NCBI GenBank assembly: GCA_964633865.1
Contig: CAZWIJ010000002.1
Location: 64,628 to 128,627, forward strand
Origin: an uncultured Candidatus Saccharibacteria bacterium
GTDB taxonomy: Bacteria; Patescibacteriota; Minisyncoccia; SW-4-49-11
DNA length: 64,000 nt
Reading direction: 5' to 3'
Under the pieces are notes generated by a model. That model was given only the letters and a program-made list of their open reading frames with translations. It made no database searches and was not told the origin of the DNA. Shown piece after piece: positions 855 to 61,526 of the stretch (position 1 is its first letter; each line of letters begins with the position of its first letter). Both the position numbers and the translations under genes were made by a program.

Positions 855-3800
855 ATGCAAGAGATTATCCAAAATTATCTAAACAATATCCAATCCCTCT
901 ATCAATCAGGCAATGCACGAGAACATGCTTATCGGCCTGCCTTCCAAACCTTGATTGAGAATCTAATCGTTGATATTCAAGTTATAAATGAACCATCTTA
1001 TACTGGTGGAAATGCACCCGACTTTCTTTTCAAAAAAGGAGATATACCTATTGCTTATGCAGAATGTAAAGATATAAATATAGATATCAATTCAAAATCA
1101 GTCCAAGCACAAGCCCAAAGATATGTAGATGCATTTGGTAAAATTTTGCTTACCAATTACTATGATTTCCAAATTATGATAGAAAATCAAGACCCTGTCT
1201 TCTTTTCTATAGCCAAATTAGAAAATAACAAATTTATCTTAGATGAAGAGAATTTAGATCAAAATCTAAATCTACTCCGAGATTATCTCTCCCCAACTCC
1301 TCGTACAATCCGCTCTTCCCAAAAACTAGCCGAAATAATGGCAAACAAAGCAAGAATCCTAAGAGACACAGCCAAAGCTTCGCTTACCGAAAATCCAAAT
1401 TCGGATATTCAAGCTCAATATCAGACTTTCAAACAAATTTTGATAAATGATTTGTCCGAAGATGATTTCGCTGATATGTATGCCCAAACTTTGGTTTATG
1501 GGCTTTTTGTAGCTAGATATCATGATTCTACATTACCAACCTTCTCAAGATATGAGGCTCAAGATCTTTTACCACAGACCAACCCTTTATTAAAAAAATT
1601 CTTTGGTCATATTGCTGGAACAGATTATGACCCCAAAATTGCTTGGTTAGTGGATAGCTTAGTAGAAGCTTATCTTTCTACCAATGTAGCAGAACTAATG
1701 CATACTGAATTTACTAGCAAAGAAAAAGACCCTATTCTACATTTTTATGAGACATTCCTATCCAAATATGATTCCCTATTAAGAAAAAGTCGTGGAGTTT
1801 ATTATACACCCAAAGCCGTAGTCTCTTTTATGGTGAGAGCCGTTGATCAGATTTTACAGGCAAAATTTAATCTTCCACAAGGTTTGGCAGATACCAGTGT
1901 GATTGAATATGAGAAAAAAATTCAAGCAAATGATGCCAGAACCAAAGATAATCTAAAGAAAATCAAAATACAAATTCCCAAAGTCCAAATACTAGATCCA
2001 GCTGTAGGAACAGGGACTTTCTTAGATGAAGTCATAAAACAAATTCATACCAAATTCCGAGGCCAAGAAGGGCTTTGGTCAAGTTATGTCAGTAATCATT
2101 TGATCAATAGACTACACGGATTCGAGCTGATGATGACAAGCTATACAATGGCTCATCTCAAATTAGGTATAACCTTAGACGAGTTAGGTTACAAAGGGAA
2201 AGATAGGTTGTCAGTTTGGCTTACCAATAGTTTGGAAGAAGGTGTCCACGAAGTGCCAAATTTATTTATGTCTCAGTGGCTCACCGAAGAATCCAATCAA
2301 GCTTCCAGAATAAAATCAGAAATGCCGATTATGGTAGTTTTGGGAAATCCACCGTATGCGGTTAGCTCTTCTAATAAAGGAGAATCTATCACAAAACTTA
2401 TTCAAGACTACAAAAAGGATCTGAATGAAAGAAAGATAAATTTAGATGATGATTATATAAAATTTATAAGATTTGCTGAGGATCAAATAGAAAAAACAGG
2501 TTATGGAATAGTCGCTATGATTACCAATAATTCTTTTATTGATGGGATTACTCATAGACAAATGAGAAAACATTTGATGCAGACTTTTGATCAAATTTAT
2601 ATATTAGATTTACACGGAAATTCTAAGAAAAAAGAAACTGCCCCAGATGGCTCAGCAGACCAAAATGTCTTTGATATTATGCAAGGAGTTAGTATCAATA
2701 TTTTTGTTAAAAATAAGAGCGAGTTGCAAAAATTACCCTCCAAAAAAGATTTAGCCGAAATTTATCATTCAGAAATTTTTGGGAAAAGACAAGCTAAATT
2801 TGACTTCCTGAACCAAATCAACTTTAATTCTATCAATTGGCAAAAATTAAATCCTTTAGGACCTTATTACTTTTTTGTACCTAAGGATTTTAAAGATCAA
2901 ATTGAGTATGAGAAAGGCTTTAAAGTTAGTGAATTGTTTGAGGTTAATACAAGTGGAGTAAAAACTCATCATGATAAAGAATTAGTTTCTACTTCAAAAT
3001 TTAATACCGAATATAACTTAAGTTATAACTATAGAGCTTTTGATAATCATTTTATAAATTATGATAGAAATTTAGTTGAAAGAGATAGATATAATGTTAT
3101 GAAACATTTTATCTTAGGTGATAATTTAGGATTAATTTTTAGAAGAACAATAGAAAATACAAAAAATTGGCATCATATACATATTACGAAAAACATGATG
3201 GACATTAATTTTCTATCTGCTCAAACTTATAATTTCCCACTTTATCTTTATACTCAGGCAAGCTCAGCAGAACTTAAGACCTCCTCTCAAACCACCCCGC
3301 CCTTTGGGCACCCCTCCATCGGAGGGGAATTAAAGACCTATTCTAACTCCTCCTTTGGAGGAGAAAATTCCTCTTCTTTGAAGGGGTGGACTGCGGAGCA
3401 GAACGGGGTAGTCAAAAAACCTAATCTAAATCTAGAAATAGTAAAAGAAATTGAGGGTAAATTAGGGTTGAGATTTATTCATGATTTAGAGAATAAACCA
3501 CCCCGCCTTACAGGCACCCCTCCGACGGAGGGGAATAATAACATCTACTCTAACTTCTCCAAAGGAGAAGAAAATTCCCCTTCTTTGAAGGGGTGGCAGT
3601 CGCAGAATGACGGGGTAGTTAGTTCTGAAGATGATAAACCCCAGTCTGTCGGAATAGTTAAAAATGAAACTACTAGAAATACTTTAAACTATAAAAGTTT
3701 ACCTTTTAATCATAAACTACAAGATAGAGCTAAAGAATTAAGAAAAGCAGGTAATTTGGCAGAAGTTGTATTTTGGAATCAAGTTAAATCTAAAAAATTT

Positions 3801-4619
3801 AAAAATTATGATTTTGACCGCCAAAAAATAATAGGAAATTATATTGTAGATTTTTATTGTACAAATTGTAATGTAATTATTGAAATTGATGGAAGTAGCC
3901 ATAATGACAAACAAGAATATGATACAGAAAGAGATTTATATTTAGAAAGTTTAGGACTTACTGTTATTCATATACTAGACACTGATGTACTTAATAATTT
4001 AGATTCTGTAATGGAAATGTTATCAAGTCACCCAGCCTTAGAAAACAAACTAACTCACATTTCAGATACTTCCTCTCAAACCACCCCGTCCTTTGGGCAC
4101 CCCTCCATCGGAGGGGAATTACTAACTTTCACTCCCCTAGATTTACTAGATTATATCTATGCTGTACTCCATAATCCAGACTATAGAGATAAATACAAAG
4201 AATTCCTAAAAATAGATTTCCCAAGAGTTCCTTATCCAGAAGATCAGGAGAAATTTTGGCAACTTGTCAAATTAGGTGGAGAGTTAAGAGAACTTCATTT
4301 ATTAGAGTCTCCCAAAGTGAATGAATATATCACACAATATCCAATTGATGGAGATAATATAGTTAGTAAAGTTAGATTTGAAAAGTCTATTTCTGAAGAT
4401 GTAGGCAAAGTCTATATCAATGAAACTCAATATTTTGATAATGTACCGATTATAGCTTGGGAATTCTACATTGGAGGTTATCAACCAGCTCAAAAATGGC
4501 TAAAAGACAGAAAAAACAAAACTTTATCTATTGATGATATTCTTCACTACCAAAAAATTATTGTTGTTCTTTCAAAAACAAATCAGATTATAGGGGAGAT
4601 AAGTGCGTTGCCGATATAA
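855..4619 (+). CDS. Type IIG/IIL single-chain restriction-modification enzyme (N-terminal PD-(D/E)xK nuclease + gamma-class N6-adenine DNA methyltransferase + TRD), MmeI-like architecture, carrying an in-frame DUF559/Vsr-like endonuclease domain insertion
   Basis: N-terminal D..E.K motif (NAPDFLFKK...IAYAECKD). Motif X G.YYTP (GVYYTPKAVVSFMV). SAM motif I (ILDPAVGTGTFLD). Motif IV NPPY (VVLGNPPYAVSS) about 118 aa downstream, as in MmeI/HsdM gamma-class MTases. 1254 aa. A DUF559 signature (AKELRK...YDFDRQKIIGNYIVDFYC...IIEIDGSSH...RD..LESLGLTVIH) lies inside the C-terminal third. Confidence 0.8.
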   Translation: MQEIIQNYLNNIQSLYQSGNAREHAYRPAFQTLIENLIVDIQVINEPSYTGGNAPDFLFKKGDIPIAYAECKDINIDINSKSVQAQAQRYVDAFGKILLTNYYDFQIMIENQDPVFFSIAKLENNKFILDEENLDQNLNLLRDYLSPTPRTIRSSQKLAEIMANKARILRDTAKASLTENPNSDIQAQYQTFKQILINDLSEDDFADMYAQTLVYGLFVARYHDSTLPTFSRYEAQDLLPQTNPLLKKFFGHIAGTDYDPKIAWLVDSLVEAYLSTNVAELMHTEFTSKEKDPILHFYETFLSKYDSLLRKSRGVYYTPKAVVSFMVRAVDQILQAKFNLPQGLADTSVIEYEKKIQANDARTKDNLKKIKIQIPKVQILDPAVGTGTFLDEVIKQIHTKFRGQEGLWSSYVSNHLINRLHGFELMMTSYTMAHLKLGITLDELGYKGKDRLSVWLTNSLEEGVHEVPNLFMSQWLTEESNQASRIKSEMPIMVVLGNPPYAVSSSNKGESITKLIQDYKKDLNERKINLDDDYIKFIRFAEDQIEKTGYGIVAMITNNSFIDGITHRQMRKHLMQTFDQIYILDLHGNSKKKETAPDGSADQNVFDIMQGVSINIFVKNKSELQKLPSKKDLAEIYHSEIFGKRQAKFDFLNQINFNSINWQKLNPLGPYYFFVPKDFKDQIEYEKGFKVSELFEVNTSGVKTHHDKELVSTSKFNTEYNLSYNYRAFDNHFINYDRNLVERDRYNVMKHFILGDNLGLIFRRTIENTKNWHHIHITKNMMDINFLSAQTYNFPLYLYTQASSAELKTSSQTTPPFGHPSIGGELKTYSNSSFGGENSSSLKGWTAEQNGVVKKPNLNLEIVKEIEGKLGLRFIHDLENKPPRLTGTPPTEGNNNIYSNFSKGEENSPSLKGWQSQNDGVVSSEDDKPQSVGIVKNETTRNTLNYKSLPFNHKLQDRAKELRKAGNLAEVVFWNQVKSKKFKNYDFDRQKIIGNYIVDFYCTNCNVIIEIDGSSHNDKQEYDTERDLYLESLGLTVIHILDTDVLNNLDSVMEMLSSHPALENKLTHISDTSSQTTPSFGHPSIGGELLTFTPLDLLDYIYAVLHNPDYRDKYKEFLKIDFPRVPYPEDQEKFWQLVKLGGELRELHLLESPKVNEYITQYPIDGDNIVSKVRFEKSISEDVGKVYINETQYFDNVPIIAWEFYIGGYQPAQKWLKDRKNKTLSIDDILHYQKIIVVLSKTNQIIGEISALPI
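3282..3332 (+). repeat. GC-rich palindromic repeat R1 copy 1 (tcctctcaaaccaccccgccctttgggcacccctccatcggaggggaatta)
   Basis: near-identical copy at 4080-4130; contains hairpin cccctcc/ggagggg; translated in-frame as SSQTTPPFGHPSIGGEL. Confidence 0.85.
3360..3412 (+). repeat. GC-rich repeat R2 copy 1 (…ttctttgaaggggtgg…cagaacggggtagt)
   Basis: similar copy at 3555-3620; translated as NSSSLKGWTAEQNGVV vs NSPSLKGWQSQNDGVV. Confidence 0.7.
3496..3537 (+). repeat. degenerate R1-like GC-rich hairpin repeat (accaccccgccttacaggcacccctccgacggaggggaata)
   Basis: shares the ccaccccgcc…gcacccctcc..cggaggggaa core with R1 copies. Confidence 0.65.
3555..3620 (+). repeat. GC-rich repeat R2 copy 2
   Basis: aligned by eye to 3360-3412. 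Confidence 0.7.
4080..4130 (+). repeat. GC-rich palindromic repeat R1 copy 2
   Basis: 50/51 identical to 3282-3332. Confidence 0.85.
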
Positions 4620-4681: not shown

Positions 4682-5215
4682 ATGAATAATTTCATATTAT
4701 TTGACAACAACTACAAGAAAACATTTTTTGTATTATCTTTAATAGGAATACTTACTTCTTATGGATTAGATTTTTATAAAATAGGAAATAATAATATAAT
4801 ATATTTGGCAATTTACTTAGTTATAGTAGGAATAAGTGTATTTGATATAAAAAGTATTGCTTTTGATAAACTAAAAATAGAATTTAATAAAGTGAAAGAA
4901 CAAATAGAAACAATATCCTTTTTAAGTTTTATTTTAGCTAGTAGATGGGATGGTCCAGAATTAGATAAAATAAAAAATTTTTTAATAAAAGAATATATAC
5001 CAAAGATTCAATCTCCACAAACACAAGATGTAATCAATTATATGAATGCATGGGAAGATTTTGATAATTATCATTATGAACATGCTATAAGCAGTATAAA
5101 AGATGAAGAAGTTAGAAAACAAAAAGAAAATTATGCAGAAAAGAAATTATCAAAAGCAACCGATGAATTTTTAGATAAAATTAGAAAAAAAAATTCACCA
5201 AGAAACCTTTATTGA
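4682..5215 (+). CDS. hypothetical membrane-anchored protein (2 N-terminal TM helices + soluble C-terminal domain)
   Basis: 177 aa ORF; hydrophobic N-terminus; no recognisable motifs. Confidence 0.45.
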   Translation: MNNFILFDNNYKKTFFVLSLIGILTSYGLDFYKIGNNNIIYLAIYLVIVGISVFDIKSIAFDKLKIEFNKVKEQIETISFLSFILASRWDGPELDKIKNFLIKEYIPKIQSPQTQDVINYMNAWEDFDNYHYEHAISSIKDEEVRKQKENYAEKKLSKATDEFLDKIRKKNSPRNLY

Positions 5216-5495: not shown

Positions 5496-7460
5496 ATGTA
5501 CTTTCACAAGAGAAAAATTATGACCACTTTACTACCTATTTCTAGTTTCAAATCTCAGATTTTAGATTCAGTTTCTAATAATTCTGTGGTGATCATCACT
5601 GCGGAAACCGGAGCTGGAAAATCAACTCAAGTGCCACAATTCCTAGTGAATTCTGGCTATCGTGTGGTTGTAACCCAACCAAGGAGGCTGGCTGCCACTT
5701 CCGTGGCTGAAAGAGTGGCTGAAGAAATGGGGTGTAAACTCGGAACTTTTATCGGTTATCGTACCGGTGAAGAATCCTGTTGTTCCAATGGCACTCGCGG
5801 GTTATTCGTAACCGATGGGTTACAACTTGTTCGTGAGTTGACCTCTGGAGGTCAGACTGATGTACTAATCATTGATGAGGTTCACGAATGGAACCTCAAT
5901 ATTGAAGTATTAGTTGCTTGGTGTCGTCATCAGCAACAGCTTGGGTCACCTCTCAAGGTAGTGCTGATGAGTGCTACGATGGAGGCGGAAAAGTTGGCCG
6001 AATATTTTGGCAATGCTCCAATAATTTCCGTCCCAGGACGAACTTTTCCAGTGGAAGAAAAACAGGATACAAGTGATTCTGTAGTAGCTAATGTGAAAGC
6101 ATTGGTGGCTGAAAATCGTAATATTTTGGTTTTCCAACCTGGTAAAGCTGAGATTGAAGAGTGTATCTATGAAATTTCTCAAGAGATTGGAGAAAAAGCA
6201 GTCCTATTACCTTTACACGGTAATTTGACTTCTGAGGAACAACATAAAGTTTTTCAAAACTATAACCTTCCTAAGGTTGTAGTTGCCACCAATGTAGCTC
6301 AAACTTCAATCACTATTCCTGACATTGATGCCGTAATTGACACAGGAGTTGAAAGACGGATTGAGTTATCGGACGGTATTGAAGGATTGTACTTGAAAGA
6401 AATTTCTCGTGCAGACTGTATGCAACGAAAAGGTCGTGCAGGCCGAACAAAAGAAGGGATCTATATCTTATGTAGTGAGACTTCTTTGGAGGATCGTAAT
6501 GAATTTCCAAGGTCTGAAATTGAAAGATCTCGTTTGGATCAAATGGTATTGAGACTCGCTGTCGCTGGATTTGATGCCTCAGAGTTAGATTTCTTCCATG
6601 ACCCTGGTCATACCATTATTCTTGAGGCAAAAAGAACATTACAGGTTCTTGGAGCTCTTGATCACGATGGCGAGGTGACTCAGATTGGTCGTCAGATGTC
6701 TCATCTTCCCCTCTCTGTCCAATTCTCCCGTATGGTAGTGGAAGCTGCTCGTTATGGAGTCTTGGATGAAGTCATAACAGTAGCTGCTATTCTTGAAGTT
6801 GGTGGTATCACTGCTCGAGACGGTCGTTGGGGTAAGTTGACCAAAGAGCATGATTCAGATTTATTGGCACAACTTGATGTATATCAAAAGGCATGTGAGT
6901 TGCACAAGTCTGAGTTACATGAAAGCGGGATTTGGGTAAAAAACTTTTACCGAGTAAAAGAGCTTCGTCGTAAGCTCTGGAAATCGGTGAAAGGCTTAAA
7001 ATCCACTCCTCCCATTGTAGATGAAGCCTCTTCTCGTGATATGATCAAAAAAGCCTGCTTAGCAGGCATGGTAGATCATGTATACCAATCACGAGGTCGA
7101 AGACTCTACTCTAATGGAGACTATGTTATGAGACAGATTGCTCGTGAATCAGTAGTTGTCGGCGATGAGATTGTGGTAGGGCTTCCTTTGGACATCCAGA
7201 TTCGCTCTGGCAGAACTCTGAATTTGATTCAGATGGTGACCAAAGTGGATCTAGAAACTCTAAAAGAAGTTGCTCCTCAACTATTCGAGTTTGACGAAAA
7301 CTATACTCAATATGATGTCAGAAATGATGTTGTAAAAAGTCAAGGCTCAGTCAAATTCAATGGACAAGTAATTCAGTCTAATATATCTCAACCTTGTGCT
7401 GACAAAGCCAAGGCTACAGAAGTATTGGCTGAATACTTAGCTTGTCAGACAACTCGTTAA
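5496..7460 (+). CDS. DEAH-box ATP-dependent helicase, HrpA/HrpB-like core (probable true start ATG at 5520)
   Basis: Walker A TAETGAGKST, DEVH box (IIDEVHE), SAT-like (MSAT), QRKGRAGR motif VI; 654 aa; GC content visibly higher than flanks. Confidence 0.85.
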   Translation: MYFHKRKIMTTLLPISSFKSQILDSVSNNSVVIITAETGAGKSTQVPQFLVNSGYRVVVTQPRRLAATSVAERVAEEMGCKLGTFIGYRTGEESCCSNGTRGLFVTDGLQLVRELTSGGQTDVLIIDEVHEWNLNIEVLVAWCRHQQQLGSPLKVVLMSATMEAEKLAEYFGNAPIISVPGRTFPVEEKQDTSDSVVANVKALVAENRNILVFQPGKAEIEECIYEISQEIGEKAVLLPLHGNLTSEEQHKVFQNYNLPKVVVATNVAQTSITIPDIDAVIDTGVERRIELSDGIEGLYLKEISRADCMQRKGRAGRTKEGIYILCSETSLEDRNEFPRSEIERSRLDQMVLRLAVAGFDASELDFFHDPGHTIILEAKRTLQVLGALDHDGEVTQIGRQMSHLPLSVQFSRMVVEAARYGVLDEVITVAAILEVGGITARDGRWGKLTKEHDSDLLAQLDVYQKACELHKSELHESGIWVKNFYRVKELRRKLWKSVKGLKSTPPIVDEASSRDMIKKACLAGMVDHVYQSRGRRLYSNGDYVMRQIARESVVVGDEIVVGLPLDIQIRSGRTLNLIQMVTKVDLETLKEVAPQLFEFDENYTQYDVRNDVVKSQGSVKFNGQVIQSNISQPCADKAKATEVLAEYLACQTTR

Positions 7461-7543
7461 TTTTATTTATAGTGCCAATATATTATATATTGGTACATTC
7501 CTGAAGTTTTGAAAGATCATAATTTGTTCTTTTCAAGATTTCA

Positions 7544-8953
7544 GTGAATGTAATTTTACAATTTAATTTTTTCTGGAGAATTTTTATTATGGATTTCGCT
7601 ACTATTATTTCTTTCAATAAAGCTATTTTGAAAACTGCTCGTGAGATGAATCTCCGAGCCAACCAAGATATTTTCACTGTTAAATCTGAGCAGGAAATGA
7701 AAGAGTTTTACTTGAAAGCTCTAGCTGGAGCAACCACTATGACTGAAGTCAAAGATTGGGAAGCTCTAAAGCTCCCCGCTCTTGATCAAGATATGATCCT
7801 CTTAATTGAGGAAGAATATCCCACAGTTATATTACTGGGAGATTCAGAGATTCAGGCAGAATACACTATGTGGAGTAAAAATGCTCCAATGGTTAATTTC
7901 AAATTTTCTGAAGAATCTTTAATTAAAGCTTTTGAGAATAACTGGAAAATTCCATTCGATACCGAAGGACGATATAAAAGATTTTCTTATAACAATTTTA
8001 TAGAAGCTTCCTTAGAAGAACTCTATCATAAAGTTGTAAGTGAAGAAGTGAACTCGAAACTTCGCAAACTTAACCAAAGTCTTGAAGAAACTACCTTTAG
8101 TTCTCTTCGTGAGATTGCTCCCAATCAACTTGGAGCATGTCAGACCGTTCAAATTATGAATCAAGAATTTGAGGTCTACAAAGCACTCCGATTTTCCTAT
8201 GGGGAATACTTCTTCCAACTCTGTCAAGAGAAGGAAGAAGCACTAGAGGGCACTATTTCTACATTAAACAGTTATTGGGATTTAAAAACCAATAATATGA
8301 TTAATGAGATTATTGGTCAAGAATTCTTCACTGAGAATTGGCTACGACGAGATTCTTTCCTGAATTCTATCAAAGCTCAACTTGAGCAATTGTCTGAAGA
8401 ATGGAAAGAAAATCCCGGATTGATTCTCGAGTCTCTGGAGAAATTTCAAAACTTACTCAACTCTTTTGTAGATGCTTTTATCCTAGAATACTCTGTATTT
8501 GAAAAAAGATACGAGTCTCTAAACGATAAAAAAAATTCCATGAGTATGTCATGGGAAATTCGAGAAGAGGTTGGAGAATTACTTTGGAATACTTCCCTGA
8601 CGGGAATTTTATCTGAAGAATCCAAAAAATTGGATAAGGCAGAAAGACTACTTAATTCAGTTAGCAATGCTTCTGAACTTAAAGAGGAGGAAGAAGATCT
8701 AGAAGATAATTCTGGGGAAGAAGTTGTCTTTACTGATATTGGCAATCGATATTTCACTTGTCAATGTGGGTATAACAATCGTCTAACAAAATCTGCTTTC
8801 AAAGCCTATCAAGTAGGAGAAATCCTAGAAATTGAGTGTGGAGGTTGCGGAGGATATGGAGAAATTAAAAAATCTCAATCCTCCGACAAAAAACCCAAAG
8901 ATAGTGATCTTAGCTCTAGCTTAGATGCTATCCGTCAAAAATGGGGTAAATAA
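7544..8953 (+). CDS. hypothetical acidic protein with C-terminal CxxC…CxxC zinc-ribbon (probable start at 7589 MDFATII)
   Basis: 469 aa ORF. C-terminus has CQCGYN…CGGCGG; no other recognisable domain. Sits immediately downstream of the helicase with similar elevated GC. Confidence 0.55.
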   Translation: MNVILQFNFFWRIFIMDFATIISFNKAILKTAREMNLRANQDIFTVKSEQEMKEFYLKALAGATTMTEVKDWEALKLPALDQDMILLIEEEYPTVILLGDSEIQAEYTMWSKNAPMVNFKFSEESLIKAFENNWKIPFDTEGRYKRFSYNNFIEASLEELYHKVVSEEVNSKLRKLNQSLEETTFSSLREIAPNQLGACQTVQIMNQEFEVYKALRFSYGEYFFQLCQEKEEALEGTISTLNSYWDLKTNNMINEIIGQEFFTENWLRRDSFLNSIKAQLEQLSEEWKENPGLILESLEKFQNLLNSFVDAFILEYSVFEKRYESLNDKKNSMSMSWEIREEVGELLWNTSLTGILSEESKKLDKAERLLNSVSNASELKEEEEDLEDNSGEEVVFTDIGNRYFTCQCGYNNRLTKSAFKAYQVGEILEIECGGCGGYGEIKKSQSSDKKPKDSDLSSSLDAIRQKWGK

Positions 8954-36455: not shown

Positions 36456-37556
36456 TTATTTAATTATATCCAATAAATCTTCAAAGAAATAGGTTTTATT
36501 TCTTTCTTTATTATTATGATGAATAATCAAATTTTGAGATAAATAATGCAAGATACGAAAAGTTGCATCTTTTTTTATTCCCGTTTGCCTTGAAAAATCA
36601 GCAGAGTCAAAAATAGGTACTGAGAATAAGTAATCTAAGACTTTAATAGAATTTTTTGGAGTAGGAATATCAATAATTTTATCTTTTAATTGTTCATATA
36701 GAGCAAGAATTTTTTTAACTTTTTCAATGTTTTTTATGGACTGTTCTTCTACTGCTATAAGAAAAAATTTAATCCAACTTTCCCAATCCCCATTTCTTGA
36801 TATGTTTTGTAGATAATCATAATATTCATCACGATGAAGCTCAAAATACTCACTCAAATAAAACATTGGAGAAGATAGAACTTTTTTGTAATACAAGAAT
36901 AATGGCATTAAAATTCTTCCTGTTCTTCCGTTTCCATCCCAAAAAGGATGAATAATTTCAAATTGAGCATGAACAATTGCAAGTTGAACTATTTGATCTT
37001 TTTCATCAGAATGAATATATTTTTCAAAATTAGAAAAATACTCTGCAATATTTTGTGGTTCTGGTGGAATATAGCTGGCTCCTTCTACTCCCAATCCTTG
37101 TTTTCCAATAAAAACAGAACCTGTTCTAAAATTTCCAGGATTTTTCCCTTCTCCCCTTGTCCCCTTTAAAAGAAGCTTATGTATTTCTTTGATCAATTGT
37201 CCTGTTAAAGGGATTGTTTCGAGTTTTGTAATTGCTACACTCATGGCATGCCTATAATTAATAATCTCTTGAATATCTTCATATTTTTCAGTTTTTTCCT
37301 TTGGGTTGGCATCAAATTGTAAAACTTCTTCAAGAGTTGCTTGAGTCCCTTCAATTTTAGATGATAAAACGGCTTCTTTTGTTGATAGAGGAGATAAAAG
37401 AACTCTTCCATTTGGGATACTTTGAAGAAAAGCATCAAACTTCGCAACTGCTCTATTTGCTGTTCCTATATGAGCAATAAAAATATCCCCATTTAATTTT
37501 TCTAACGGTAAATTATCTGGTTTGAATGGTTTCATATTTTTTAAATTATAAATCAA
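36456..37556 (-). CDS. Fic family protein (AMPylase/Fido domain)
   Basis: canonical Fic motif HPFWDGNGRTGR; 366 aa; located between hsdM and hsdS. Confidence 0.85.
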   Translation of the reverse strand: MIYNLKNMKPFKPDNLPLEKLNGDIFIAHIGTANRAVAKFDAFLQSIPNGRVLLSPLSTKEAVLSSKIEGTQATLEEVLQFDANPKEKTEKYEDIQEIINYRHAMSVAITKLETIPLTGQLIKEIHKLLLKGTRGEGKNPGNFRTGSVFIGKQGLGVEGASYIPPEPQNIAEYFSNFEKYIHSDEKDQIVQLAIVHAQFEIIHPFWDGNGRTGRILMPLFLYYKKVLSSPMFYLSEYFELHRDEYYDYLQNISRNGDWESWIKFFLIAVEEQSIKNIEKVKKILALYEQLKDKIIDIPTPKNSIKVLDYLFSVPIFDSADFSRQTGIKKDATFRILHYLSQNLIIHHNNKERNKTYFFEDLLDIIK

Positions 37557-39661
37557 CTATTCCAAAAACTTAATTTCTGTTCTTTCGCCCATTTTTCAAA
37601 AGCTAATGCTATTTCTCTAAGATCATGCTTTTGAATAAGATGATTATGCTCATCGAGCTTTCTCTCTCCCTTCTCATTGGTTTCATACATTTCTATTCCT
37701 GAATTATCTTTTCCGCTATTCTCACTTACTGCCATGAAAATCTCATAATCCTCTTGTTGTGAATTATAGCTTGGAGAATTAGGATCTTCATCCCATTTTT
37801 GGATAAACAATACTGATGTTTTAGTTCCTGTATGTGGTTTAAAGGTGTTTCCATCTAATCCTACTACTGCCACAAGTCTTGCTTTTTCCATAATAAAGCT
37901 TCTAATCTTTTCATCGCTAGTATTATTAAATCTTCCTTGTGGGAGAACAACTGCCATTCTTCCTCCTTCTTTGAGAAAATCTAGATTTCTCTCGATAAAC
38001 AATACATCTCTTGAGACTTTATTTGCTTTTTTTCCTTTACTGTCAAAAGCGACTTCATAATTCGATATTAATCTACTATCTTTAATATCTCCTGCAAACG
38101 GAGGATTTGCCATTACAATATCAAAATTAAATTCTTTTGGGTTCTGTCGATTTTTTGCTAAATCTAGCATTCGATAATATCCTTCAAGATATGTTTTTGC
38201 CCATGAGCTATCTTTTAGTTTTTCTTCCCATCTTGTATAATCTAGTGTATTCAAATGCAATACATTGGTTTTTCCATCTCCTGCTATCATATTGAGGGTT
38301 CTTGCTACTCGAACAGATTTTTCATCAAAATCAATTCTAAATACTTTATGCACATAATCTTTTTGCTCATTGGTAAGTTTTTGATTAGAAAAATTATGAA
38401 AATTTGCTTTTCCTTGATTGACTAATTTTTGCCATACATTAAATAATGTATGTACAGTAAATCCACAACTTCCACAAGCGGTATCTATCATGTATTCATG
38501 TGATTGTGGGTTCATCATATAAACACACATATCTATAACATTTCTTGGGGTGAAATATTGCCCTTTTTCTCCTTTTGCTGACTTATTGACTAAATATTCA
38601 AATGCTTCATCTATCACCTGCAAATTAGAATTAAAGAGCTTTACATTTTGCAAAAATCCTACACAAATTTGGAGATGGTTTTCATCGGTTATTCTGAGTG
38701 GTTCACCTTGCTCAAAAATTCCTTGCCATTTTGATTTGGCTTTTCTATAGAGTTCATTGATGACTTCTTTTGTATGATGTGCATCTCCACGGCTTCTAAA
38801 TTCTAATTTTCTATAATCTTCATTATCAATTTGTTCGAGAATTTGTTTATCTGTAAGGGTGGGGTTTTGCTTCTTGATAATTTTAAACTGTGTCTCAATA
38901 TTTACCCTATCATCAGCACTTTCCATTTCGTCATAAAGTTTGGTAAATATAAGTTTAAATACTTCTTCAAATACATCAACTCCTGCTCCTGATAAAACTT
39001 CATCTTCTATTTCTTGAATCAAAGATTTAAGAGATTTTCGCTCTTCTGCAAGTCTATCTTTTTGCATAAGCTCAAGATAGGTAAATCGTTCATTCTTTAC
39101 ATCATCAATGGTTTCATGTACTTTTGGAATATCTGAAAGAGGTTCAAAATAATTAGGATCAAGTCTTTCATAATAATCAATCTCTACTCCATTAGTCCAG
39201 ATTGCAAGTGGAGCACCTGTAGCATTGGTATAACTTTTAAGCTGATCTTTTCCATCTTTAGCACTATGTTTTTTAATCTCAAGCACACAATAAATACTTG
39301 TTTTATCCTGTTTGTTCAATATTACAATATCTGCAAATTTCTTTTCTCTTCCAAAACTTACAGTATATTCAACATCCAGTAAATCAACAGAATAACCATA
39401 TTCATTGATAAGTTTATCTAACATTAGTTGTCTCACTATCTCTTCAGGCTTTACTTGGATGTCTTTATTTCTTTTAAGACACTTTAGGAAGAGCTTGTCT
39501 CCTTTTTCAAAAATACTATTTTCAATTTTATCGATACTTTCAGGTGAAAAAATAGTAAGATCATATTTACCATTTGATTTAATAAGTTGTGAAAGTTGTC
39601 TATGAACCATATTTTTTATAATCCTTAAATTTAAACTTACCCCCATTATACCACTTTCCAA
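37553..39661 (-). CDS. hsdM: Type I R-M N6-adenine DNA methyltransferase HsdM with ~200-aa N-terminal restriction-endonuclease-like (HsdR_N/PD-(D/E)xK-like) extension
   Basis: motif X QYFTPRNVIDMCV, motif I IDTACGSCGF, motif IV VMANPPFAGD; N-terminal ADIVILNK…YCVLEIKK nuclease-like motif; 702 aa. Confidence 0.85.
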   Translation of the reverse strand: MESGIMGVSLNLRIIKNMVHRQLSQLIKSNGKYDLTIFSPESIDKIENSIFEKGDKLFLKCLKRNKDIQVKPEEIVRQLMLDKLINEYGYSVDLLDVEYTVSFGREKKFADIVILNKQDKTSIYCVLEIKKHSAKDGKDQLKSYTNATGAPLAIWTNGVEIDYYERLDPNYFEPLSDIPKVHETIDDVKNERFTYLELMQKDRLAEERKSLKSLIQEIEDEVLSGAGVDVFEEVFKLIFTKLYDEMESADDRVNIETQFKIIKKQNPTLTDKQILEQIDNEDYRKLEFRSRGDAHHTKEVINELYRKAKSKWQGIFEQGEPLRITDENHLQICVGFLQNVKLFNSNLQVIDEAFEYLVNKSAKGEKGQYFTPRNVIDMCVYMMNPQSHEYMIDTACGSCGFTVHTLFNVWQKLVNQGKANFHNFSNQKLTNEQKDYVHKVFRIDFDEKSVRVARTLNMIAGDGKTNVLHLNTLDYTRWEEKLKDSSWAKTYLEGYYRMLDLAKNRQNPKEFNFDIVMANPPFAGDIKDSRLISNYEVAFDSKGKKANKVSRDVLFIERNLDFLKEGGRMAVVLPQGRFNNTSDEKIRSFIMEKARLVAVVGLDGNTFKPHTGTKTSVLFIQKWDEDPNSPSYNSQQEDYEIFMAVSENSGKDNSGIEMYETNEKGERKLDEHNHLIQKHDLREIALAFEKWAKEQKLSFWNS

Positions 39662-56813: not shown

Positions 56814-59800
56814 TTACTTACTCCAAACAATATCCATATTATCTAATTTATAATTACTTGGATAATGAGAAAAGTTTTTCTCATTACTAAATGAATAATT
56901 TCCATCTTCATTATTAACTTCTTTATATTTATTTATAGCTTTATCCATAGATTTTTCAAAAATAGTATCTGTTCTATTTGTCCTTATATGTTTATTCTTT
57001 GAAATTGCTATCTTATCAAAATCATTATCTTTAGCAAAATCTATTAAAGTGTTATTTAATTCATTAAATAGTGATTCTTGATCTACAGAATACAAATATG
57101 TACTTGATGGATTATACGATGCTGACAAAATTTTCTGTCCATCTTCATCCTTAAAATGATGTAATAATACTAATCCCACACATCTTTTATTTTCTGGATT
57201 TTGTAGCACTAACTGAAAGTAATTTGGCATATCCCATATATTCTTTTCTCCTTTATCTGGATTACAGCCTGAAACACATACTCCTCCGACCATTCTTGCA
57301 TATGAACTCAAGTCATCTTTATTTATATATCCATTTAATTTCTTTGGTTTTTTCTCTATTTTTTTACCATCTGGATCATAATCTACCATTATAAATTTAT
57401 TGACTTCTGTTTCTATTATCTCATTCTCTTCTTTATACAAATTTGTGACACTTTGTTCTATTAATCTATTAAATAGTTCTTCATCATAAATTCCATCTGA
57501 TGCTGAAATCTTTAGAGCTATTACTTCTTTTAGATTTATATCTCCTAAATGTGTTGTCATCAAATCTTGTTCTTCTCCTGTTAATTGTCTAAATGCTTCT
57601 ACTGTTTTATTTCTCTGTCCCTTTAATCTTCCATAAAATGTCTTGGTATTAGAATCACTAGAGTTTGAGACTTTCTCCTCTAAAAATCCTGTCAGACTCT
57701 CATATCTACTTATAATTTCTCTTACTCTATCTTCTGAATACTTTTCTTCTATTCTTGCTTTTTCTTCTTTTGTACTGTCTTTATTTAACCTTCTTTTAAT
57801 TAAAATATTTCTCATATCTTTTATAAATTTGTCATTTAATCCTAATTTATCTATTTGTAACTTTCCTAATTCTTGTTTTTCTCTAGCTATTCTTTCTCTT
57901 TCTTGATTTTCTTTATATACATTCTCTGTTATCTCTTGAAATATTGGGTTTTGTTTTCCTTTATCTACTATTACATTCTGGGCTTCTTTTATTGTATCTT
58001 TGTAGAATTCTGATAATCCCATTATTTTCTCATAGTCTTTTTCTATTCCTTCTTCCCCATTTTCCTGATATCTTTCTATATTATCCAAATGTGAAAAATT
58101 ATAATACAAAATGCTCTTTTTTATCTCTTCTTCTTTGATTTCTTTATTTAATCTTGAATATAATATTGCTGCATAAATTTTCTCTTCTTGACTGATTAGT
58201 TTTTCTACTTGTATACCTAATTTATTCTCTTCTCCTATTTTTACTATCATTTCTTCTATGATTTTATCCAGACTCTGACTTATTTTTTCTATTCCTCCTT
58301 CATTATATTCTCTCATTATCTCTTCTCTTTCTTTTTCTATTTTTCCCAAATTTTCTTTATCTATTTCTCTTCCTTCTCTTAACTCTAATTTACTTTTGTC
58401 CACTATATTTATTGGGTATTTTTCTTTTATCTTAAATCCTTCTAAATCTTGACTTCTGTCTTGACATGTCTTTACTGATTCATATTTACCATAACTACCT
58501 GCATTATTTGGATATGTATATTCTAATAAATCTTGGAAATATTCTTCATTTCTCTCTTCTTCTTTAACTCCTCCACTTGTCATTCTATCCATTGTATCTG
58601 TAATTTTATCTAAATATTCTGTCTCTTTTTGCTTACTCTTGGCTTCAAGGTATTCTTTTACTATTATTGTATTCAATACTGGAATTCTATTTACTAATTC
58701 CAATATATCTTCATAATTCTCTTCTTTTATGATTCCTTTTTCTTTACACTCTACATATCCCTTGATTAATTCTTTTTCAAGTCCATTATGTTTTTTTACT
58801 AACTTTACTACAAAAGAGTTTTCTTTATTATATTCCTTAAATCCTATTTTCTCGGATAATTTGTAAACTTTCATTCCCTTTTCAGAATATGACTTTATTA
58901 TTATTTCGTTTATTTCTTCAGTATTTTCTTGGAAAAATTCTTCTCTATATCCCACCTCTATGTTATCCCAATAATCTAATTCATCTGTCAAAGAATATAT
59001 ATTTTCTCCTAAAGAAATTTTTATATTATTACTTATTTTCTCTTTATTATTTTGCAAAATTTCTTTATTATAACCAGGTTTTATACTATTCCAATAATCC
59101 AATTCTTCTTCAATATATCTTATATTATACCCCGATAGAAATCTATTTTTCACTCTTTCTTCTATTTTTTCTTTATTTTTTTCAAAAAAATTCTTAGCAT
59201 ATCCTTCCTCTACTCCATCCCAATATTTTAAATCTTGTATCAAATTAGAAGAATTATATTGAGATATCATATTTTCTAACTTACTATTCATTAAATCAAA
59301 ATTATTTCTTAAAAAATTAACTTTGTAACCTTTTTCTATAATTTCCATATTATATAAGATTACATATAATGATTCTAGATTACCTGTACCTTCGTTTAAA
59401 GCATCTTGGATTCTTTGTTCTACAATAAGACTAAAGTCTTCATTGTTAATTATCCCTTCCAAATTTTTAATATCTCTTAAACTTCTTATTTGTGAAATTT
59501 CTATATCCAATTCTTTTTTATACTTATTTTTGAATTCGTCTAAATCTAAAGAACCATTATTAAATAACTCTTTAATTAATCTACGACCATCATGGTCATT
59601 TAAATAGGAAATACTTTCCACAACTTGTAAATAAAATTTCTCTTTAATTTCTTCATTAGGGAATTCTAGTTTTAAATCATTTATTTGAAAATCAATTTTT
59701 AAGTCTACAATGTTTCTGAATAAAGAATTGTCTGTTTTTCCTTTATAAATAATATAATTATTTATTATATTATTTATATCTTCATCAGATAGAGAACTTT

Positions 59801-61526
59801 TATCTATATTAAACTCTCTTTCTACATCTTTATAACTACTTAAATCTGAATATTGACTTACATTTAAATATAATATACTAACAATATCATTATAATTATT
59901 AAGGTATTCTGTATTAAATAAATCATTTTCAGATATCAATTTTATTAAGTTTCTAATATCATTAAATATCCTTTCAGATCTTTCAAATCCGTTTCTATCA
60001 ATCTTTCTTTGGATAAATGAATTTATTTTTTCCTGATTTTCCTCTAAAAATTCTTTCTTATTCAATATTTGTTCTTTTTCTAAGAAGTTAAGAAATTTTA
60101 TGGAGATTTTAATATCAGAAGAAAAAAACATATCTACTATTTTTACATCTATACTAACTTTATTATTAGTATAAAATTCTTTAAAATCCACACCATAAAG
60201 TTGGCTCCATTCTTCAATCTTTTTATCTATATCTATATCTATATCTATAGGATTTATAAATATCTTATCAAAGTCAGAAAACATTGTTTGTATTTTTTCT
60301 TTGCTTAAATCTTGATTTTCATTCTGATAACCAATCTTCTCAAGAAATTTATTTTTATCCGTGGCTAAAAGATTATTGATTACATTTTCTATGTCTTCTT
60401 CTTTATATATTCTATTTAAATTAATATAATTTGTTATATCTTGAATAAGTTCTTCCATTGAAAAATCTTCTTTGTCGGGTAAATTTTTATAATTTTCCTC
60501 TATTTTATCTTTTAAATATGTTTTAAAATGTATGTTCTCAGTGTCATTATATATATTTTCTAAATTAATAAATTCTTTATCTTGAGTTAAAGTATTTTTA
60601 TATATCTTATTAAAAATATTTTCTGAATTAATTTCTTCTTCCATTTTTTTCAACTCTTCTTCTGAAGCAGGCATAATTTCACTTCTCTTCATCCTATCCA
60701 AGCCTGAATAATTTTCTATTATATCATTAGATAAGTGTATCTTGTCCAAAGTGTTATTTAATTTAACAAAATTTATTAAATCTTCTTGTATAGAATCTTT
60801 TGGCAAATCCATTTCATAGATTAAGCTAACTTTGATAGCCTCTAATTTTGAGATTTCAGTGTCTATTTTAATTTTTAAAAGTTCTCTATCTCTTGCTAAA
60901 TCTTTTGTATCCCACATATTTTCTTTTTCTATTGATGTTGGGTTTATTGATTTATAACTCTCTTCTATTTCTTCTATTTTTTTAATCATTAACAAAGCTA
61001 TATTTTGTACTTTTTCTTTAAATTCTTGGAATACTTTTATATTTTTTAAACTTTCTATTAAAGTATTTCTTTCTTCCCTACCTAAATTTGAGGTTGATTG
61101 AAAAAAATCCATACTCTTTTCTTTATCTATTCCTTTTAGAAAAAATAAATTATCTTTTAAATTATCGCTTTCTACTAAACTAGCATAATCTGATTCTTCA
61201 TTATTTTCTTTATCTAAATCCTTTAATTGTTCTTGTAAATCTTGATAGAAATCTATAATTTCTTGTGTAGATTTCTGTAAGTTTTCTATAGAAAATTCTA
61301 AAGATTTTTCTTTATCTTTATTGATTACTGTATTTTCGATTGCTTTTATTATTGGAGAGTTTTGCCTAAAATATTCCCAGATATTTTCTGGTGGTTTGAT
61401 TTTCTCACCTTCAAACTTATCTATTTCAATATTTTCTACTTTACTCTCCTTTTCTGATAAAGTCTCTTGTTTTTTTTCTAAAATTTCTTCCTCACTCCCT
61501 TGATTATAATTTCTAAATTTTTCCAT
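56814..61526 (-). CDS. giant (1570 aa) E/K/N/I-rich repeat-containing hypothetical protein
   Basis: single uninterrupted ORF; three ~35-aa (D/E)L(D/K)YW(D/N).(I/V).(E/P)GY…NKEKI repeats; (ID)n tract encoded by a (TATATC)n microsatellite at ~60225-60250; Cys/His-containing C-terminal globular region. Confidence 0.6.
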   Translation of the reverse strand: MEKFRNYNQGSEEEILEKKQETLSEKESKVENIEIDKFEGEKIKPPENIWEYFRQNSPIIKAIENTVINKDKEKSLEFSIENLQKSTQEIIDFYQDLQEQLKDLDKENNEESDYASLVESDNLKDNLFFLKGIDKEKSMDFFQSTSNLGREERNTLIESLKNIKVFQEFKEKVQNIALLMIKKIEEIEESYKSINPTSIEKENMWDTKDLARDRELLKIKIDTEISKLEAIKVSLIYEMDLPKDSIQEDLINFVKLNNTLDKIHLSNDIIENYSGLDRMKRSEIMPASEEELKKMEEEINSENIFNKIYKNTLTQDKEFINLENIYNDTENIHFKTYLKDKIEENYKNLPDKEDFSMEELIQDITNYINLNRIYKEEDIENVINNLLATDKNKFLEKIGYQNENQDLSKEKIQTMFSDFDKIFINPIDIDIDIDKKIEEWSQLYGVDFKEFYTNNKVSIDVKIVDMFFSSDIKISIKFLNFLEKEQILNKKEFLEENQEKINSFIQRKIDRNGFERSERIFNDIRNLIKLISENDLFNTEYLNNYNDIVSILYLNVSQYSDLSSYKDVEREFNIDKSSLSDEDINNIINNYIIYKGKTDNSLFRNIVDLKIDFQINDLKLEFPNEEIKEKFYLQVVESISYLNDHDGRRLIKELFNNGSLDLDEFKNKYKKELDIEISQIRSLRDIKNLEGIINNEDFSLIVEQRIQDALNEGTGNLESLYVILYNMEIIEKGYKVNFLRNNFDLMNSKLENMISQYNSSNLIQDLKYWDGVEEGYAKNFFEKNKEKIEERVKNRFLSGYNIRYIEEELDYWNSIKPGYNKEILQNNKEKISNNIKISLGENIYSLTDELDYWDNIEVGYREEFFQENTEEINEIIIKSYSEKGMKVYKLSEKIGFKEYNKENSFVVKLVKKHNGLEKELIKGYVECKEKGIIKEENYEDILELVNRIPVLNTIIVKEYLEAKSKQKETEYLDKITDTMDRMTSGGVKEEERNEEYFQDLLEYTYPNNAGSYGKYESVKTCQDRSQDLEGFKIKEKYPINIVDKSKLELREGREIDKENLGKIEKEREEIMREYNEGGIEKISQSLDKIIEEMIVKIGEENKLGIQVEKLISQEEKIYAAILYSRLNKEIKEEEIKKSILYYNFSHLDNIERYQENGEEGIEKDYEKIMGLSEFYKDTIKEAQNVIVDKGKQNPIFQEITENVYKENQERERIAREKQELGKLQIDKLGLNDKFIKDMRNILIKRRLNKDSTKEEKARIEEKYSEDRVREIISRYESLTGFLEEKVSNSSDSNTKTFYGRLKGQRNKTVEAFRQLTGEEQDLMTTHLGDINLKEVIALKISASDGIYDEELFNRLIEQSVTNLYKEENEIIETEVNKFIMVDYDPDGKKIEKKPKKLNGYINKDDLSSYARMVGGVCVSGCNPDKGEKNIWDMPNYFQLVLQNPENKRCVGLVLLHHFKDEDGQKILSASYNPSSTYLYSVDQESLFNELNNTLIDFAKDNDFDKIAISKNKHIRTNRTDTIFEKSMDKAINKYKEVNNEDGNYSFSNEKNFSHYPSNYKLDNMDIVWSK

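Follow-up and report, generated by a model that had tools for sequence, protein, structure and literature searches.

Repetitive extragenic palindromic (REP) sequences and REP doublets forming hairpins (REPINs) accompany a single nuclease-type gene that is flanked by two inverted short palindromic units. These units share a conserved tag, their stems vary with compensatory changes, and extra units occur singly or in inverted pairs (PMC2817692, PMC3337134, PMC3733652). The gene encodes a REP-associated tyrosine transposase (RAYT), an HUH/Y1 enzyme, and REPs are extragenic, lineage-specific and mostly inherited vertically. Rickettsia palindromic elements (RPEs), described by Ogata et al. (2000) and recounted in PMC10969869, are hairpin inserts of about 150 base pairs (bp), translated in frame within unrelated genes and compatible with the host fold. 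A selfish lifestyle also exists for the nuclease fold of the EDxHD family (PMC3239194), and the EDxHD homing endonuclease I-Bth0305I, Vsr and DUF559 have been grouped in one PD-(D/E)XK clade (PMC3424549). We analysed a 64,000-nucleotide (nt) stretch of DNA, hereafter the window, from an uncultured Candidatus Saccharibacteria bacterium (contig CAZWIJ010000002.1, positions 64,628 to 128,627), in which a Type IIG restriction-modification gene carries a DUF559 coding sequence between inverted copies of a two-hairpin unit. The segment has a defined anatomy and belongs to a family, and the cassette at its core has exact ends and a patchy distribution. We think it fairly likely that the segment is composite mobile DNA, translated in frame in permissive surface loops of an otherwise intact enzyme.

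The DUF559 cassette and its two-hairpin units

A complete DUF559 domain lies in frame within the specificity region of the 1254-amino-acid (aa) product of the restriction-modification gene, whose open reading frame (ORF) is unbroken, as an earlier note made from the sequence alone had predicted. The Pfam profile (PF04480) matched at E=5.7e-29, with 100.6 bits against a cut-off of 20.6, and the Type_ISP_C match is split in two around it, the second stretch (aa 1090-1246) corresponding to profile positions 185-340. The ORF is indeed longer than its relatives, homologues without the inserted segment being about 1020 aa long. The NCBIfam model PRK09767 matched the domain at E=2.3e-19, below the equivalog cut-off of that model, and its sequence matched the PDB entry 3HRL at E=4e-17. 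The predicted structure superposed on 3hrl with a template-modelling (TM) score of 0.80 and a root-mean-square deviation of 1.6 Å, which indicates a Vsr-like fold, and on 3r3p (I-Bth0305I) with a TM score of 0.72; 1cw0 and 1vsr were matched too. The acidic/histidine motif D...E-x-D-G-x-x-H is present (IVDFYCTNCNVIIEIDGSSH, aa 996-1016), and the catalytic D..ExD..H motif has been retained by 36 of 37 embedded relatives and by 117 of 120 that stand alone. By fold and motif DUF559 is a PD-(D/E)XK-type nuclease, with its activity predicted from the sequence. A search with the domain gave 3629 matches at E<=1e-5, the best 120 of which, spread across phyla, are all at least 64% identical to it. The domain is 64-75% identical to small stand-alone DUF559 proteins of many phyla and 68-77% identical to embedded copies of its own lineage. 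Its coding part has 24.8% GC, and 10.7% at third codon positions (GC3), under the window mean of 28.5%. No in-frame ATG is present between aa 782 and 1053 of the host ORF, and DUF559 is therefore probably produced solely as part of the fusion.

The earlier note had placed this domain in one GC-rich element bounded by direct repeats 798 nt (266 codons) apart. The repeats are real, 54 nt long at 3279-3332 and 4068-4121 with 52 of 54 positions identical, but they lie 789 nt (263 codons) apart and neither delimit one element nor result from a target duplication. A third copy (69% identity) is found at 3485-3538, and a 24-mer of the repeat occurs three times in the window against 0.00 expected. The direct repeats turned out to be two of five copies, three forward (A1 to A3) and two inverted (B1 and B2), of a 41-47-nt two-hairpin unit. 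Its consensus reads ACCACCCCG, a variable hairpin, then CACCCCTCC-NNN-GGAGGGGAAT or, when variants are included, ACCACCCCG, a short hairpin and CACCCCT(C/T)C-NNN-G(G/A)AGGGGAAT. A second repeat of 80 nt (3333-3412 and 3540-3619) holds reverse-complement copies of the first, and alignment showed B1 and B2 to be reverse complements of A1-A3. A covariance model built solely from copies in other genomes, whose E-values are rough, recognised exactly five full units in the 64 kb, all within 3291-4119, and no credible unit elsewhere in the window; the core hairpin occurs five times against 0.02 expected. GC richness within the segment is limited to the repeat units (53-66%) and does not extend to the whole of it as the note had it. 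Rfam at gathering thresholds recognised only a tRNA, in the window and in ten loci that bear the repeat; relaxing E to 10 added nothing but chance-level matches in the region 3200-4200.

All five units are translated. A1 and A3 are read as TTPxFGHPSIGGEL, the inverted copies as NSxSLKGWxxxxxGVV, and A2 in another frame; because A1/A3 and A2 are read in different frames of one ORF, the repeat is a feature of the DNA and not of the protein. Between A1 and A3 the bracketed block also contains a native strand-helix of the host, aa 854-880, and the block is thus not a single insert. This native sequence is present in DUF559-free homologues as TPNL(D/N)xxI..., and among 42 homologues, both DUF559-bearing and DUF559-free, N857 is invariant and P856, L858, I862 and I866 are at least 90% conserved. 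The AlphaFold model, which covers aa 601-1254, gave predicted local distance difference test (pLDDT) scores of 90-97 in the native strand-helix, above 90 in the C-terminal specificity part and 76-92 in DUF559, whereas three unit-encoded stretches scored below 50. The host protein would tolerate the insertion because the units, in most cases free of stop codons, encode disordered linkers here and DUF559 folds autonomously.

The unit belongs to a large family. Scanning one genome per species for CACCCCTCCNNCGGAGGGGAA gave at least 120 loci in many phyla; those listed span Clostridia, Bacteroidota, Acidobacteriota, Alpha-, Beta- and Gammaproteobacteria, Planctomycetota, Patescibacteria and others. 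Of 138 instances, 116 have the tag CCACCCC ahead of the core. Between tag and core we counted 76 distinct sequences of 2-48 nt, mostly hairpins that differ wholly in sequence and length, such as GCCC-TTC-GGG, GGCAC-TTC-GTGC, GTCAGGC-TTC-GCCTGC and GTCAAAAATTC-TTT-GAATTTTTGC. Compensatory changes were detected at two stem positions of one length class (covariation 0.168 versus 0.050 after shuffling, with none of 500 shuffles as high), and 53 of 98 units lack a stop codon in all six frames, compared with 23% of shuffles. The general motif was matched six times among 2.9 million viral contigs. A unit variant that lacks the first hairpin, GCCCCACCCCTACACCCCTCCCACGGAGGGGAAT, forms arrays at loci L075, L053, L029 and L067 (Clostridiales bacterium Im510_bin91), with a spacing of about 99-147 nt and up to 5 copies in 520 nt.

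A DUF559 gene adjoins the motif in 19 of the 120 motif loci listed, and these genes are bracketed by an inverted and a forward unit regardless of gene strand. Since these loci had been selected by motif, five stand-alone DUF559 genes were taken by protein identity alone; the inverted/forward bracket was found around all five (four independent loci), sometimes in degenerate form. The similarity between the two ends of the cassette stops at TTCCCCTCC and GGAGGGGAA, giving inverted ends of about 45 nt, as in terminal inverted repeats. The same limits are seen when filled and empty sites are compared. The enzyme P0243 from Psychroflexus, 90% identical outside the cassette to P0083 from Maribacter, has an empty site that reads ...ACCAACGAGAAA|GAAACCACC..., and at exactly that point P0083 and P0084 carry an insert running from TTCCCCTCC through DUF559 to GGAGGGGAAT. 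In our locus the remaining copies, A1, B1 and A2, are extra units located in the cassette loop and in the preceding loop.

The four DUF559 lineages compared carry their own end variants. P0335 (L141) and P0267 (L140) represent two further lineages in the same loop, each with its own version of the two-hairpin ends, which in L141 are swapped (the forward unit precedes DUF559 and the inverted unit follows it). P0083 (L137, Maribacter sp. 4G9) also has degenerate in-frame units at about position 373 of the gene (FPSSEGGVSAGRG, N-terminal domain) and about position 1395 (LPSGGVPAGRGG, methyltransferase region). In Candidatus Enterousia sp. (L060, about 6280-8000 and the queA ORF) the queA gene product, QueA, contains two in-frame DUF559 cassettes. 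One is canonical-ended, and the other has a compensated variant of hairpin 2, CCCCTCT-GGCY-AGAGGGG, at both ends and in extra copies, which suggests cognate nuclease-unit pairs within one genome.

Table 1. Coordinates of the cassette, the hairpin units and the host gene in the window
Feature	Position	Strand	Details
Cassette proper (B2, DUF559 coding sequence, A3)	3574..4119	+	Order as around stand-alone DUF559; ends match the filled/empty difference
DUF559 Vsr-fold nuclease domain	3645..4064	+	Pfam core 3714-4019, aa 954-1055; motif IVDF...EIDGSSH at 3840-3902
Unit A1, forward	3291..3330	+	55.4 bits, E=5e-13; translated TTPPFGHPSIGGEL, frame 0; loop 'site 0'; 65.9% GC; pLDDT <50
Degenerate unit remnant, hairpin CTCCTCC-TTT-GGAGGAG	3336..3366	+	Inverted repeat; weak model match, E=0.2
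Unit B1, inverted	3367..3412	-	25.5 bits, E=5.6e-5; translated NSSSLKGWTAEQNGVV
Native host strand-helix KKPNLNLEIVKEIEGKLGLRFIHDLEN	3414..3494	+	aa 854-880; outside any insertion; 25.6% GC
Unit A2, forward	3497..3536	+	52.1 bits, E=4e-12; translated PPRLTGTPPTEGN, frame offset 2
Degenerate hairpin CTTCTCC-AAA-GGAGAAG	3553..3570	+	Inverted repeat; weak model match, E=2.3
Unit B2, inverted, cassette left end	3574..3619	-	36.6 bits, E=5.7e-8; translated NSPSLKGWQSQNDGVV
Unit A3, forward, cassette right end	4080..4119	+	52.8 bits, E=2.6e-12; translated TTPSFGHPSIGGEL; pLDDT <50
Host gene	855..4619	+	ORF, 1254 aa; Type IIG restriction-modification enzyme (PD..ExK nuclease, N6-adenine methyltransferase, Type_ISP_C specificity domain)
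N-terminal nuclease motif APD...ECK	1014..1073	+	aa 54-73, read in translation
Methyltransferase motifs DPAVGTGTF (aa 381-389) and NPPY (aa 497-502)	1995..2360	+	Pfam, translation
C-terminal specificity part	4122..4619	+	Type_ISP_C profile 185-340; closer to 'clade I' homologues than the remaining gene

The host enzyme family and other carriers

The PADLOC model REase_MTase_IIG matched the 1254-aa protein at E=9.4e-277 in three stretches, and Pfam recognised N6_Mtase, Eco57I and MmeI_Mtase in its middle, plus Type_ISP_C. A single chain thus combines nuclease, methyltransferase and specificity domains, as in Type IIG enzymes, with a predicted activity. Whether or not they have DUF559, homologues conserve its P-D...E-x-K motif to at least 90%, and its nuclease and methyltransferase motifs are conserved among carriers as well as non-carriers. 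With an open ORF and these motifs present, the host enzyme appears intact. The modelled specificity domain matched LlaBIII (4xqk), DrdV (7lo5) and LlaGI in fold comparison; only the specificity and methyltransferase regions matched the Type ISP structures 4xqk and 5ffj. Because Pfam found no helicase or translocase domain in the protein, such as the superfamily 2 helicase of Type ISP enzymes, we assign it to Type IIG and not to Type ISP, despite the names given in databases. A look-up by exact protein, which could not return shorter alleles, found this enzyme unchanged on at least 15 contigs from five samples; the five contigs compared as DNA, drawn from five metagenome samples, are 99.99-100% identical.

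The distribution of DUF559 among related enzymes is patchy. In a first search it was found in 33 of the best 120 homologues, a figure that is a ranking artefact, because a DUF559 match raises the score. When P0083 with its cassette deleted was used as query, PF04480 was present in only 6 of the best 120 homologues (69-90% identical). A clade uniformly carrying DUF559, seen in the first tree, was rejected as the same artefact after this search (trees were built by neighbour-joining from 120 sequences). Site 1, between KLGLxFxxEK and FAPIDILDYIY, is occupied by at least four DUF559 lineages, and site 2, before GKVYINETQYF, holds DUF559 in P0111, P0115, P0116 and P0119; site and DUF559 lineage are interspersed on the host tree. 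Peptides derived from the units are present in 33 of 37 DUF559-bearing members and in none of 200 DUF559-free ones (p=2.6e-36), so that in this enzyme family units are found only where the same gene has DUF559. Unrelated in-frame tandem repeats (HHHTEAEHLEAERSRSF..., STSSVTSI..., DIPFLQP... and others) occur in these two loops in P0258, P0346, P0338 and P0354, at positions corresponding to about 3495-4121 and 4390-4404 of the window. Since unrelated repeats occupy them, sites 1 and 2 are generally permissive and hot spots for in-frame insertion.

The host protein itself is a mosaic. Its aa 1-600 group with DUF559-free homologues of candidate phyla radiation (CPR) type, in clade II, with 65-74% identity against 41-60% to clade I. 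The relation is reversed over the last 160 aa, which are 71.6% identical to clade I versus 60.7%, all 24 nearest neighbours belonging to clade I. The resulting contrast of +10.9 points is above that of every clade II member (maximum +8.4).

The cassette family is present in many bacterial phyla, stand-alone or in frame, mostly within restriction-modification genes in our host survey, a small motif-selected sample. Units lie well inside 16 long ORFs among the motif loci. The whole cassette is in frame in five Type I HsdR genes of different phyla at one site, between AAYHQYYAVNRAVESTLRA and GGVVWHTQGSGKS; in one of them (L033) Pfam recognised HSDR_N, DUF559, SWI2_SNF2 and T1RH-like_C. Single in-frame units were found in genes for HsdM, HsdS, two other HsdR proteins, a DNA methylase, YchF and MurG. 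One Type I system of a Bacteroidales metagenome-assembled genome (L032; ORFs on the reverse complement at 384-1979 and 5707-7764) combines a cassette-bearing HsdR, which has a further unit close to its N-terminus (FPSDGGVPEGRGG), with an adjacent HsdM that contains a unit in frame (FPSTGGVPEGRGG).

The surroundings of the gene are those of a low-GC bacterial chromosome, with DnaE, aminoacyl-tRNA synthetases, BipA and SufB. An ORF of 177 aa without a family match (4682-5215) separates the restriction gene from a gene for an HrpA/HrpB-like DEAH helicase two genes downstream (5496-7460, + strand), a compositional outlier since it has 40-50% GC against 28.5% in the window. A second restriction-modification-like gene (37553-39661, - strand, 702 aa), with HSDR_N_2, N6_Mtase and Eco57I, resembles the MADS defence methyltransferase MAD2 (E=2.7e-91, below the model cut-off) and has no hairpin units according to the covariance model. 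An ORF of 1570 aa (56814-61526, - strand) gave no Pfam match.

Proposed mobility and its alternatives

If the segment is composite mobile DNA, its core would be the DUF559 nuclease coding sequence between two inverted two-hairpin units. By analogy with REP/RAYT, DUF559 would mobilise its own units and the cassette. We tentatively propose that it is the cassette's own nuclease and that it may recognise the tag-plus-hairpin units as RAYT does REPs, because units are found clustered with DUF559, both ends of a cassette vary together, the DUF559 lineages differ in their cassette ends, and the units stay GC-rich while the DUF559 codons have drifted to their low GC3. Mobility could alternatively proceed by homing, through cleavage of empty sites, the fold being common to I-Bth0305I; occupation of one site in diverged hosts and the mosaic 3' flank may hint in this direction. 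Recombination with a homologue that carried DUF559 probably brought in the cassette along with the 3' part of the gene, since the C-terminal 160 aa are clade I-like and the N-terminal 600 aa clade II-like, although a mosaic 3' end fits homing-like co-conversion and ordinary shuffling of specificity modules equally. In our reading the cassette would be selfish rather than useful to the enzyme. It is possible, if a little short of an even chance, that DUF559 and its units make up an undescribed class of mobile element of many bacterial phyla, REP/RAYT-like in architecture and driven by a Vsr-fold nuclease. As its units seldom carry stop codons, single units and whole cassettes alike could then colonise genes in frame, restriction-modification genes by preference, and leave them active.

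Several points weigh against mobility. We infer it from sequence comparison, no movement having been observed, and a close empty allele of this very gene was not found, the nearest relatives being 68% identical. The exact 40-mer of the A1/A3 repeat had no match in metagenome contigs, a collection that evidently lacks the source organism. Comparison of filled and empty sites shows at most 1-2 A of host sequence duplicated, and with junctions rich in A a very short duplication is possible. A retained catalytic motif and host-like AT-rich coding would be expected just as well of a module that has long resided in the gene and been selected for a function in the host. That the same loops are filled repeatedly may mean that they are permissive, not that they are targeted; the mosaic 3' end could have arisen by common shuffling of specificity modules; and the seeming surplus of restriction-modification hosts was obtained from a small, motif-selected sample.

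The main alternative is a domesticated accessory domain: DUF559 would be a second nuclease or nickase, or a DNA-binding module, supplying for instance second-strand cleavage or a Vsr-like repair nick, and the units would be leftover flexible linkers. We consider this unlikely, and less likely than mobile DNA. The motif kept in 36 of 37 embedded copies speaks for it, yet conservation in embedded copies equals that in stand-alone ones, and near-universal retention does not discriminate mobility from domestication. Long residence is suggested by the host-like, very low GC3 of the DUF559 part, and persistence of an identical allele in five samples also counts for domestication; DUF559 is nevertheless carried by only about 5% of the closest homologues (best 120) and is missing from a 90%-identical enzyme. 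The hosts are repeatedly restriction-modification proteins (Type IIG, HsdR, HsdM, HsdS), but this cassette is also found by itself between unrelated genes, and within QueA. In Type IIL enzymes such as DrdV each chain has a single nuclease site, and the match to DrdV-like structures counts for domestication on this ground. Carriers, however, retain the native N-terminal nuclease motif, and four unrelated DUF559 lineages occupy two different loops.

Much less probable is the model of the earlier note, a single DUF559 element bounded by direct repeats of 51-54 nt, read as a target duplication or as a substrate for recombination, whose excision restores the gene. The repeats are real, nearly identical and separated by a multiple of three, and their recombination would keep the frame (789 nt, 263 codons) as claimed. 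It would not restore the host gene: because the conserved native strand-helix lies between A1 and A3, host sequence (aa 854-880) would be deleted. The repeats, moreover, belong to a dispersed unit that has five copies here, two of which are inverted; homologues and stand-alone loci show inverted and not direct bounding units, and no host sequence is duplicated at the filled site.

Very improbable, and slightly more so, is an ancient native domain, with DUF559 and its linkers ancestral to the enzyme family and lost in many lineages. The 33 carriers of the first search, mostly filled in the same loop and a few at the second, would fit this history, but the unbiased search left 6 of the best 120. 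Several DUF559 lineages occupy the site and are nearer to stand-alone genes than to each other, and over its first 600 aa the query nests among DUF559-free relatives. Homologues thus do not all carry the segment natively without flanking repeats, and the suggestion in the earlier note that it behaves as a mobile, selfish-like element rather than a native domain has held up, given the few carriers and the 90%-identical empty relative. Intein, intron and tandem-repeat explanations were considered and rejected, a self-splicing element that leaves the protein (an intein) or the transcript (an intron with a homing endonuclease) having next to no probability. In its favour, host motifs of high conservation adjoin the position and the EDxHD enzyme I-Bth0305I (PMC3239194) has a related fold, but Pfam at E up to 0.1 found no Hint/intein domain, the junctions ...ENK|PPRL... 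and ...GGEL|LTFT... lack Cys/Ser/Thr or His-Asn residues, no Rfam intron family was matched even at E up to 10, and the reading frame is continuous.

Significance and comparison with described systems

The combination of DUF559 with restriction enzyme domains is already present and annotated in databases, and the protein architecture is therefore not new. Literature on DUF559, on Vsr-like genes with inverted repeats and on the unit strings yielded no description of the cassette, the string matches being primers and unrelated sequences; as a mobile entity the cassette appears undescribed in the literature and in Rfam as searched. DUF559 is a very large family of unknown function, and ours, if true, would be the first function proposed for it. 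The family-wide pattern makes a testable hypothesis, that the nuclease works on its own hairpin units, because units in inverted orientation bracket the gene, filled and empty sites have exact ends, and units are confined to DUF559-carrying members. Many puzzling low-complexity stretches and N-terminal "leaders" of annotated proteins are explained by the peptides that the units encode (SPPLEGCPxGGVV, FPSxGGVxExRGG, TPPxEGN, GHPSxGGE). The permissive loops of Type IIG and Type I enzymes are candidate engineering sites for domain insertion. The question is also raised whether the elements hitch-hike on mobile, addictive defence genes or modify their activity.

The host resembles Type IIG/IIL and Type ISP enzymes (MmeI, DrdV, LlaGI, LlaBIII) in its N-terminal PD..ExK motif, gamma-class N6-adenine methyltransferase and Type_ISP_C domain, and differs from them by the extra DUF559 cassette and the linkers encoded by the units. 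Like inteins with homing endonucleases, the insert is an in-frame nuclease module beside conserved host motifs and is patchy among homologues; unlike them, the cassette has neither a Hint domain nor splice-junction residues, and the insert therefore presumably stays in the mature protein. With I-Bth0305I and Vsr the cassette shares the nuclease fold and a related active-site motif. I-Bth0305I, however, has NUMOD DNA-binding regions and resides in a self-splicing intron or intein, whereas the cassette has no splicing element, ends in inverted hairpins and is translated within the host protein.

RPEs are a close parallel for translated hairpin DNA that is compatible with the host fold in unrelated genes. 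As far as they are described in PMC10969869, they are confined to Rickettsia and have no associated nuclease gene, and by these descriptions they are set apart from units of 41-47 nt that are GC-rich, occur in many phyla and are tied to DUF559. If our reading is true, the units would be a second example after RPEs, and a far more widespread one, of mobile DNA that survives in coding sequences. The organisation as a whole is like that of REP/REPIN and RAYT, with one nuclease-type gene flanked by two inverted palindromic units, a conserved tag, a stem that varies with compensatory changes, and extra units that are single or in inverted pairs. RAYT serves here as a model only, the action of DUF559 on the units being predicted by analogy. 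The flanked gene encodes a Vsr-fold DUF559 and not a Y1_Tnp transposase, and, in contrast to REPs, the units are near-identical across phyla and lie inside coding sequences.

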